40,069 nt of DNA, from the IMG/VR virus record IMGVR_UViG_2526164633_000045, positions 1 through 40,069 of that record; one strand, written 5' to 3'. The DNA comes from a virus. Taxonomy: Duplodnaviria; Heunggongvirae; Uroviricota; Caudoviricetes. How positions within the stretch are numbered: the stretch's first letter is position 1; each line of letters begins with the position of its first letter. This document shows positions 22,555-39,796 of this stretch, one piece after another. Made by a program: the position numbers and the translations under genes. The notes beneath the pieces were generated by a model, which searched no databases, had not been told where the DNA came from, and worked only from the letters and a program-made list of their open reading frames with translations.

Positions 22555-23216
22555 GCGCCTTCTCCCTGTACCTGAATCAATGTGAGATTTCCGCAGAACA
22601 CTGCGCCGGTATCGATATACATCTGGTTGGCAAATTTGAGTGGTTTCACTGCTGGCGTATGACCAAAGATGAACGTGTCAGCGCCTTTAATTTCTTTCAC
22701 GATCCCGTCTTGTGAGTTGCTGATTCGTTTGCGGTTCCAGATTACCTGCTGATGATCAACTGGCTTTCCAAACTCGTATTCGTCAAAGGGATAATCGGCG
22801 TGGCAGATAACATATTTTTTATCTTTGCTCACCAGTTCGATGATTAACGGAAGTTCTTCTGCTTTATGGGCAAGAGCTTTAGCCAGAATTTCTTTGTCGT
22901 AATCGAGATTAAAGAACCAGCCACCGCCATTAAGCAGCCAGTGATTGACGTTTCCACGCTCTGATAAGCCATCAATCATCATTTGCTCATGGTTTCCACG
23001 TACAGCTCTGAACCAGGGGAATGTGATTAATTCCAGACATTCGACGTTCTCTGTACCGCGATCAACCAAATCGCCCACCGAGATAAGCAGGTCTTTTTTG
23101 GTGTCGAATCCTATCGTCTCCAGTTTTTTCATCAGGTTCGTGTAGCATCCGTGCAGATCGCCAACTACCCAAATATTTCGGTATTTGCTGCCATCAATTC
23201 TTTCGTAGATATTCAT
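22545..23216 (-). CDS. Serine/threonine protein phosphatase (lambda ORF221 / NinI-like)
   Basis: 223 aa, ...[27 protein letters not shown]...[21 protein letters not shown]...[11 protein letters not shown]...: metallophosphatase motifs (GDLHG, GDLVDRG, GNHE) in lambda PPase arrangement. Confidence 0.92.
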
Positions 23217-23815
23217 GCAACCTCACTTCTGCTGTTTCGCAGTTTTTTAAGTTTCTGTTGATACTCCGCCTTGATGGCCCTGCACTCTTCGACAGTCCAG
23301 CGATAGCGGTTATGGTTTGATTCGATTTCCTCTACTGCTTCCTGCCCGATGCGGCTAATCAGTTCGACGCGATACGGAACGAGATTTCCGCTTTTGTGCT
23401 GGTTGCACACCACGCATTGCTTGTGAATATTGCGTTCATCAAATCGGAGTTGAGGTGCCGCAGCAGTTGTCCGGTAATGTCCGGCATCCCACTGAGCAGA
23501 CGTGAGCGTTCCGCACGAGATACATGGTAAGTCGCGGTCTCTTTCTCTGATGAAGGCGTTTACGGCTTGTTGGGCTTGTTTAATCCAGTAACTGCGGGGC
23601 TTTAAGGCGAGTTTTCGAATCTTCAGTTTATCTTTCTGTTTCTGCTCCTCTCGTCGTAGTTTCTTCTCTGCTGCTTTTTCCGCTTTTTCGCGTTCTTTAC
23701 TTCGTCGTTCGAGTGCTATCTTGGTTCCACAAATCTCATTACACCAATATTGATTTTGATATTTTGGTATAAACCATTCATTGCAACATTTACATTTCCT
23801 TCGATAGATTCGCAT
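23213..23815 (-). CDS. ninG: NinG (Rap) recombination-promoting endonuclease
   Basis: From [15 protein letters not shown]...[24 protein letters not shown]...[30 protein letters not shown]...[15 protein letters not shown] matches lambda NinG; start refined to ATG 23815 with AAGGAG RBS (track ORF extends to 23875 without ATG support). Confidence 0.9.
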
Positions 23816-24356
23816 AAGTGCTCCTTTCGTTGCCGGAAAAATCACCGTAATACTTATCTCGGGCTTCTTCAGCAACTAGTACCGCTAACTCCAGATCATC
23901 AAAGCATCCGAAGTGTTTACTCTTGCCATGGAATCCTAGCCTAACATTCCATTTTTTCTGTCGTTTGTGCCAAGTAACCCCTCTGCAACCTGATTTGCTA
24001 TTCTTTCGGATCCTTATATTTCTTGAATTTTCTATTGGCAGGCATTCTCTTAAATTTTCTGGCCTATTGTCGGTCCTAATTCCATTAACGTGGTCAATTT
24101 GACCAGCAGGCCAACGATTATGAGTTATGTAAAAAACTAAGACGTGAGTTTTATATCTACGCCCATCTATCATGATCATTGAATAACCGTTGGAATCAAA
24201 AGTTCCAGCAACACTATTTAATGCTATCCTTCCCTGAGTGGGAACTTTCCATCTAAATACCCCGGTAGATTTATCGAAACTTAGTAACTCAAATATCCTT
24301 TTAACAGTTAAATCTTCTCTTTTACGGTTACATCGTCTTCGCGCTGGTTTAGCCAT
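23790..24356 (-). CDS. Free-standing HNH homing endonuclease with AP2-like DNA-binding domain, inserted at the 5' end of ninG
   Basis: 188 aa; HNH motif ([24 protein letters not shown]) plus AP2-like segment ([50 protein letters not shown]); AT-rich; first residues MAKPARRRC resemble a NinG N-terminus; 3' end overlaps ninG start. Confidence 0.8.
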
Positions 24357-24561
24357 CGTCTTCTTCCTCGTACATTGAGCTATTCGGATCGCTCATCAGT
24401 TCTGCGCAGCAATCGGAGCACACGTGAACTTCCAGCACATGCAGCTTCTGACCGCAGTTAGCGCACGTTAAAGCTCGCTCGACGCTTTCTTGTTCGTAAC
24501 TTCGATTTGGGTCAATCACCTTGTATTCCTCGCACGATGTCTTAGCCACCGGATATCCCAC
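24349..24561 (-). CDS. ninF: NinF
   Basis: ...[47 protein letters not shown] matches lambda NinF. Confidence 0.85.

Positions 24562-37188: not shown

Positions 37189-39796
<2,608 letters not shown>

Follow-up and report, generated by a model that had tools for sequence, protein, structure and literature searches.

In phage T4, intronless homing is carried out by the free-standing endonucleases SegF (gene 56), SegG (gene 32) and MobE, whose activity has been shown, and in lambdoid phages the nin region is known to be mosaic, with optional genes such as ninX/Y/Z whose boundaries lie at gene junctions. Friedrich et al. 2007 reportedly described a further arrangement in the Aeromonas phage Aeh1, in which nrdA is split by mobE and both halves are made and reassemble. 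The combination of an HNH domain with an AP2 domain is a recognised homing-endonuclease architecture (PMC10448857, citing Magnani et al. 2004; PMC5714182, group 2), and the 'ShiLan' case is a hidden HNH insertion in an actinophage methylase gene, where the host gene is read through and the HNH frame is out of frame and has its own GTG (PMC11855218). Here we describe a locus in the IMG/VR virus record IMGVR_UViG_2526164633_000045, analysed over positions 1 to 40,069 (40,069 nucleotides (nt), hereafter the window), where an HNH-AP2 endonuclease open reading frame (ORF) lies between ninF and ninG and begins with the first codons of ninG itself.

Annotations in hundreds of genomes already call the gene an HNH endonuclease, and both the family it belongs to and the way it spreads are of known kinds; a full-text search of the literature found no paper describing the chimeric ninG junction. 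We favor, with moderate confidence, the explanation that the locus is a free-standing HNH-AP2 homing-endonuclease cassette that is translated from a captured ninG start and that carries an imported 5' end restoring ninG. Its parts are the following (aa, amino acids; RBS, ribosome-binding site).

23790..24356, minus strand: HNH-AP2 endonuclease ORF, 188 aa, ATG start
24328..24356, minus strand: translation start captured from ninG, made up of the ATG, the next 8 codons and 2 nt (MAKPARRRC); now the 5' end of the HNH ORF
23732..24327, minus strand: cassette proper, 596 nt without counterpart in lambda or 434, replacing 64 nt of lambda-type ninG
23821..23826, minus strand: AAGGAG RBS of the restarted ninG, 5 nt upstream of its ATG and within the HNH ORF (direct reading)
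23732..23815, minus strand: imported, diverged ninG 5' end, 84 nt, 28 codons, 28.6% GC
23213..23815, minus strand: chimeric ninG (rap), 200 aa, lambda/434-like (~97% nt identity) from 23731 downstream

Each of the described systems shares some of these properties with the locus. As with SegF, SegG and MobE of T4, the gene adjoins its presumed target, the endonuclease-bearing allele is diverged at that target, the flanking DNA would be co-transferred, and the gene is present in some and absent from others of otherwise homologous phages. However, the Seg enzymes are GIY-YIG nucleases encoded between genes and from their own starts, whereas the ORF of the ninG cassette begins inside the target gene, the presumed protected segment is a 28-codon foreign 5' end, and activity is predicted. 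Like other genes of the mosaic nin region, the cassette behaves as a presence/absence element, and other inserts occupy the same ninF/ninG junction; those inserts start at the shared ATG and leave ninG untouched, whereas the cassette boundaries lie inside ninG. The arrangement resembles that of nrdA and mobE in Aeh1 in that neither intron nor intein accompanies the endonuclease ORF within the coding sequence and the function of the host gene is presumably kept, but at ninG the part split off is a stub of only nine codons, now joined to the nuclease, and the cassette resupplies what was displaced. Compared with other HNH-AP2 homing endonucleases (HNH_3 or I-HmuI group of His-Me finger nucleases; 'IPA-HNH' genes of ICP1-like phages), the window gene likewise encodes an N-terminal HNH_3 module followed by a C-terminal domain of AP2 fold and is a free-standing, low-GC ORF in a phage genome (PMC10448857, PMC5714182), but it resides in a temperate lambdoid prophage and not in a virulent phage, it lacks a start of its own, and its product shares no more than 47% identity with the other members found. 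In ShiLan, as here, an HNH homing element lies in a host ORF without a splicing element and its frame overlaps that of the host gene; at ninG, in contrast, the HNH is in frame with the host start and the host gene restarts downstream.

Junctions of the cassette and its two gene products

The boundaries of the cassette were derived from BLAST comparisons with lambda and 434 and from direct string comparison. Over its first 29 nt (24356..24328, ATGGCTAAACCAGCGCGAAGACGATGTAA), the ORF has the same sequence as the beginning of lambda/434 ninG, and this identity runs on unbroken from the shared 3' end of ninF; the captured 29 nt represent contiguous homology rather than a chance match. When E. coli genomes without the HNH gene were compared, the matches stopped exactly at the 24328 junction (query 1-73), and the captured 29 nt were invariant across 42 distinct locus sequences. 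A preliminary description of the window had read the first residues of the nuclease, MAKPARRRC, as a NinG N-terminus, and the junction comparison with lambda and 434 bears this out. Homology breaks after 24328 and returns at 23731 (TGTGGAACCAAGATAGC...), from where it continues at ~97% nt identity to the end of ninG. The segment in between, which contains HNH codons 10-188 and a complete, strongly diverged ninG 5' end, replaces positions 42461-42524 (64 nt) of lambda NC_001416 and has a GC content of 37.6%, compared with ~50% in the flanks and 47% in the whole window. The AT-rich HNH/AP2 gene anticipated between ninF and ninG is therefore present (ORF 23790-24356, with its HNH_3 match above threshold and in the 37.6% GC segment). 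The proposal that it had been inserted within the first codons of ninG holds for the left junction, which lies inside codon 10, but the event is a replacement of 64 nt by 596 nt and not a plain insertion. The ninG of 933W type, with sequence MAKPARRKCKIC..., is another empty allele.

The new ATG of ninG (23815-23813) is located inside the 3' end of the HNH ORF, the two ORFs overlapping by 26 nt, and the restart of ninG at this codon (23815) behind an AAGGAG (23826-23821) within the endonuclease gene was confirmed as first described. The further idea that the ninG start had been re-created did not hold, since the cassette imports a complete foreign ninG 5' end: only 14/28 aligned residues are shared with lambda, the nt identity is 52%, and the alignment contains indels. 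The new NinG nevertheless retains the four cysteine positions found in the N-terminal motif of lambda NinG, in a stretch that includes WCNEIC, and the RRxC motif occurs twice, once in its lambda-like form at the N-terminus of the HNH protein and once in a foreign form in the new NinG. The duplicated motif and the diverged, AT-rich 84 nt indicate together that the ninG 5' end was imported and not regenerated in place. A simple insertion after codon 9 of ninG, followed by the de novo appearance of a start codon and RBS in situ, would likewise place the left junction in codon 10 and yield a second ATG with its own RBS, and these features do exist, but it is contradicted by the repeated RRxC motif and by the 84 nt past the new ATG, whose divergence, indels and 29% GC stand against ~97% identity in the rest of ninG, and we consider it very improbable. 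The imported 5' end joins the resident ninG in frame, giving a predicted full-length NinG, and the chimeric product nearly spans the Pfam NinG profile (E 1.9e-83, positions 5-192 of 193).

At the other end of the cassette, no start codon lies between the preceding in-frame stop and the ATG at 24356, and a reading of the sequence between this ATG and the conserved N-terminal block of the HNH domain revealed no in-frame ATG, GTG or TTG. This block (L..LL.YD..TG.FRWK) is preceded by 1-8 residues in 13 homologues versus 16 in the window protein. As read here, the nuclease ORF is without a start codon of its own and is fused in frame to the first nine codons of ninG, and it would thus be translatable only from the original initiation site of ninG, which overlaps the ninF stop (the TAA of ninF overlaps codons 2-3 of the ORF starting at 24356, ATGGCTAA). 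Codon 16, TTA, is one change away from the start codon TTG, and, purely as a speculation, residues 10-15 might once have been a leader that is now translated. The cassette was found to contain neither promoter-like nor terminator-like sites, which suggests that the nin (delayed-early) operon would have to provide its transcription. In genome annotation, the N-terminus of the nuclease and the shortened NinG should be handled as two halves of a chimera and not as two ordinary genes.

The nuclease ORF is laid out as follows.

Residues 1-9: from ninG
Residues ~17-115: I-HmuI-like HNH module
Residues ~122-173: AP2-type domain
Residues 178-188: unstructured tail overlapping the new ninG start

The HNH assignment is supported by a Pfam HNH_3 match at residues 68-107 (E 4.2e-11; 42.7 bits versus a cut-off of 24.8) and by a PHROG match to phrog_99 'HNH endonuclease' (E 1.4e-71). 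The Pfam AP2 score, 22.2 bits, is under its cut-off of 33.3, and the sole match in a PDB sequence search was the AP2 protein WRI1, weak at E 0.19; precomputed PF00847 matches are present in several homologues. In the AlphaFold model (mean predicted local distance difference test (pLDDT) score of 82.8), no secondary structure is predicted for residues 1-16 (pLDDT <50 at 6-10), and confidence is low for residues 178-188. The N-terminal part of the model gave as top PDB fold match 1u3e, the HNH homing (nicking) endonuclease I-HmuI, with a probability of 1.00 over 98 columns and a root mean square deviation (rmsd) of 3.7 Å, at an E value of only 0.012, in keeping with a beta-beta-alpha-metal fold. 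The C-terminal part, a three-stranded sheet (127-152) followed by a helix (155-173), matched the AP2/ERF domain 1gcc (template modelling (TM) score 0.67, rmsd 1.3 Å) as well as 5wx9 and 7et4. An alignment of 14 homologues shows no variation at the catalytic residues D88, H89, N101 and N110, which include the conserved catalytic His and metal-binding Asn residues of this nuclease group, and 60/61 of the HNH ORFs at the locus are intact, with 12 synonymous and 12 non-synonymous segregating sites and a crude ratio of non-synonymous to synonymous substitution rates (dN/dS) of 0.27.

Other kinds of mobile element were also considered. A transposon or insertion sequence (IS)-type insertion was rejected on finding no flanking direct or inverted repeats beyond chance and, by Pfam, no transposase domain, and an intron was rejected on finding no Rfam match at E up to 1. 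Pfam revealed no intein domain, and the HNH ORF is separate from the restarted ninG.

Distribution, diversity and proposed spread of the cassette

The cassette was found in 538/5426 complete E. coli genomes, and an empty ninF-ninG junction was matched in 936 (best match 98.5% identical), the empty-site query being a synthetic one made of the window flanks and the 64 nt of lambda. The gene is hence not a conserved resident of the nin region, in line with the view of it as an insert. It is also present in the Shiga toxin 1 (Stx1) phages AU6Stx1 and SH2026Stx1, in a Salmonella Infantis prophage and in 56 IMG/VR contigs. Immediately upstream, two contexts occur, one with ninF (22 loci) and one with only the last ~17 nt of ninF (40 loci, typical of O157/Stx1 phages); since these last ~17 nt are kept, the short-ninF context appears to be derived from the one with full ninF. 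The junctions are identical in all 61 sampled loci having junction sequence.

The imported ninG 5' end and the nuclease gene go together. The former was found in 533 E. coli genomes versus 538 with the HNH gene, and the two partial matches to it that were examined are IS insertions with the HNH gene still upstream. Among phage records, matches to it at 100% identity occur only beside the HNH gene and are otherwise at most 62.5% identical (tblastn), and no copy without the HNH gene was found in phage records, in E. coli genomes or in a set of 5.8 billion proteins. These two, H210 and H230, had been possible HNH-free carriers of the AT-rich 5' end and were rejected as such, because they contain IS2/IS3-family insertions with the HNH gene upstream. 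In these two E. coli genomes (L006, 1261-2489; L007, 2618-3831), an IS2 and an IS3-family element are inserted in the imported 5' end, ~41 nt and 63 nt past the ATG, and ninG is disrupted by both.

The cassette is much more uniform than the DNA around it. Between the window and E. coli E2863 there are 0/596 differences in the cassette and 17/519 in the downstream ninG; the corresponding comparison with AU6Stx1 gave 1 difference in the cassette versus 14 substitutions and a 9-nt indel in ninG, and that with the Salmonella prophage 4 versus 25 differences. Nucleotide diversity (pi), computed over 37 distinct colinear sequences after removal of the IS-disrupted loci, was 0 in the captured 29 nt, 0.005 in the HNH part and 0.002 in the imported ninG 5' end, and it rose in the downstream ninG to 0.020 (next 232 nt) and 0.050 (last 287 nt), so that flanking ninG is 4-25 times more variable than the cassette. 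The 1-kb flanks fall into at least 17 upstream and at least 11 downstream clusters, in 23 combinations. To judge from these sequences, the pattern agrees with a single, recent origin and later dispersal among many different ninG backgrounds, and it would be compatible with either the nuclease or ordinary recombination as the driver.

In the mechanism that we propose, the target that the nuclease would recognise and cut or nick is the 5' region of lambda-type ninG, the very part displaced by the cassette. The foreign, AT-rich 5' end would escape recognition, so that carriers would be immune, and it is in this way that it probably protects against self-cleavage. A cassette-free phage or prophage, once cut, would be repaired from a cassette-bearing copy and would thereby acquire the cassette, with the left crossover falling in ninF or in nt 1-29 of ninG and the right one in ninG from 23731 onward. 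As for the founding event, ninG was probably broken at codon 10 and fused by a one-sided or illegitimate repair to the 5' end of a nuclease gene. The donor of that gene would have been AT-rich and would already have had it upstream of a ninG homologue, and a homologous crossover in ninG would have completed the event on the right. If the nuclease is active on lambda-type ninG, the locus would provide a simple temperate-phage model for intronless homing, in which both the target (lambda ninG/rap) and the recipient (lambda) are standard laboratory material. If the explanation is true, it would show how a selfish nuclease can settle in a coding sequence by means of the start codon of the gene and a resistant replacement part, and it would explain concretely how some mosaic boundaries inside genes arise in lambdoid phages, among them Stx phages and the prophages of O157:H7.

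Related insertions and alternative explanations

Two further HNH genes lodged in or against their neighbours bear on this explanation, one of them in the window itself.

9226-9759, minus strand: second HNH gene, NUMOD4 plus HNH_3 plus helix-turn-helix, phrog_59, between the gp10 homologue and the tail-needle gene

Local matches between the second HNH protein and the HNH-AP2 protein are ~23-26% identical, and the two differ in architecture and in PHROG. That the window holds two independent HNH insertions had been suggested from the outset, and by these differences in domain architecture and PHROG the two genes do appear independent. With respect to Sf6, 864 nt (10099-9236, 31-40% GC) replace 316 nt at this locus, and part of the new DNA is a diverged, AT-rich 3' end for the gp10 homologue, the protein being 98-100% identical to that of Sf6 up to residue 350 and 60-76% identical beyond. 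In its sequence, this locus appears to be of the same design as the ninG cassette, mirrored.

The other gene is a third HNH-AP2 ORF (MRNISNIDELRNKLSYDD...) that splits ninF (L068, 947-1365, and L071; E. coli Z1323CEC0006 / Z1323CEC0005). It has 168 intact codons and 34% GC, its product is 35% identical to the window protein, and it is located ~110 nt upstream of the ninG junction. PGAP calls this ORF a partial pseudogene, though the frame reads through.

The second HNH gene with its diverged gp10 3' end and the HNH-AP2 gene inside ninF suggest together that a 'patch-carrying' design recurs. It is possible, and we put it forward tentatively, that these loci reflect a distinct homing-endonuclease lifestyle inside coding genes without an intron or intein, in which the nuclease takes the start of its target and carries a cleavage-resistant replacement, and that this design recurs in lambdoid and P22-like phages and helps to create their mosaic boundaries.

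Not every insert at the ninF/ninG junction encodes a nuclease, as illustrated by two other prophages.

L069, 972-1241: 89-aa hypothetical gene between ninF and ninG
L070, 972-1694: 240-aa KilAC antirepressor gene between ninF and ninG

Both of these inserts begin exactly at the ATG overlapping the ninF stop, and ninG restarts intact. The junction is therefore a general insertion hot spot, and this raises the question of whether the cassette reflects ordinary nin mosaicism, in which the HNH gene would have arrived once by an illegitimate event and would since have moved by recombination in its flanks, the nuclease being inactive or irrelevant to the spread. The observations that favor such mosaicism are among those that weigh against homing, and they are the following. 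The non-nuclease inserts, unrelated to the cassette, indicate that nin mosaicism can place genes at this very junction. The copies of the cassette form a single near-clonal lineage, and a diversity that rises with distance, as expected from homing, is equally expected from homologous recombination around an insertion of single origin. Moreover, many of the 538 carrier genomes sampled are O157:H7, and in the single O157:H7 copy examined, from strain 3384 (L072, 6460-7612), the HNH ORF is intact but the prophage is degraded, with an IS30 remnant beside the cassette and neither ninF nor replication genes upstream; the abundance of O157:H7 and this decay suggest that the prevalence may reflect vertical inheritance more than spread.

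Further points tell against homing without favoring mosaicism in particular. The listed O157:H7 genomes match the ninG query at 2-4 places, and HNH-free copies of ninG may sit beside the cassette in them, in which case conversion within a lysogen would be inefficient. A natural allele has N101S at a conserved position, and one HNH copy in IMG/VR (L064) is frameshifted by a 1-nt deletion equivalent to window position 24136, both of which may represent early decay. Since the protein search returned one ~99% identical lineage and then relatives at most 47% identical, the donor and the founding event are both beyond reconstruction. Finally, cleavage, nicking, homing and the target site are what we infer from sequence.

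On the other hand, ordinary mosaicism does not readily account for the position of the boundaries, because the other inserts are bounded exactly at the start codon whereas the cassette breaks ninG in codon 10 and compensates with a foreign 5' end. An irrelevant nuclease is also hard to reconcile with 60/61 intact ORFs, conserved catalytic residues and the low crude dN/dS, nor does mosaicism explain why the two other HNH_3 genes should also be lodged in or against their neighbours, the one in the window with a diverged, AT-rich piece of the neighbouring gene. On balance we regard mosaicism of this kind, the main alternative to homing, as a rather unlikely source of the pattern.

The intactness of the ORF and the link of its expression to the delayed-early nin operon would also agree with domestication of the nuclease for competition or exclusion between phages, in which it would cut the ninG of rival or co-resident lambdoid phages at induction and be selected through the benefit to its phage; homing-endonuclease domains are indeed used in conflicts between phages and their satellites (PMC10448857). 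However, selfish homing would account just as well for the tight association of the nuclease gene with a resistant ninG 5' end and for the presence of the cassette in only some genomes, and the two readings are not exclusive. As an account of the locus, domestication appears improbable, and homing from a captured ninG start is the explanation that we retain.

Search for a donor and the prophage setting

Judging by the composition of the cassette, an AT-rich donor appears to have supplied the nuclease gene and the ninG piece jointly. No donor was found in the 5.8-billion-protein set, in the tblastn search of phages or among GTDB species representatives. When the 40-aa N-terminus of the new NinG was used as query against the 5.8 billion proteins, only partial E. 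coli NinG entries were recovered, and the only match among GTDB species representatives was 39% identical and from a planctomycete. The next relatives of the nuclease occur in T5-like and T7-like phage contexts, and the nearest two, P0004 and P0007, have no NinG-matching gene alongside. P0004 (44% identical; L073, 1033-1927, metagenome contig) lies in a T7-like context directly after the gene for endonuclease I, a junction resolvase. NinG/Rap is, like endonuclease I, a junction-specific nuclease, and this likeness of neighbours between P0004 and the HNH gene at ninG may be a coincidence.

The window represents a prophage of P22/Sf6-like type, in which the early region is lambdoid and the late, lysis and nin-region genes are on the minus strand. 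The late genes include those for a P22-type portal, the terminase large subunit and an Sf6-type small terminase, and the lysis genes those for a holin and Rz. In the order of transcription, the nin region encodes the Q antiterminator, NinB, Dam methylase, NinE, NinF, the HNH-AP2 ORF product, NinG and a NinI-type phosphatase. E. coli E2863 contains a near-identical prophage with an identical PGAP gene order, in which the ORF is annotated as 'HNH endonuclease' (WP_001108084.1).

24349..24519, minus strand: ninF, Pfam NinF E 1e-13, with the same extent in the PGAP NinF of the 100%-identical E2863 locus

The gene for the NinI-type phosphatase directly follows ninG in the window (23207-23216), as in phage 434, whereas in lambda and in the otherwise near-identical E2863 prophage ninH separates the two. 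Elsewhere in the window, an IS21-family element (37399-39200, minus strand) encodes an IstB-like ATPase (E 7.7e-112) that adjoins a transposase with an rve integrase-core domain.

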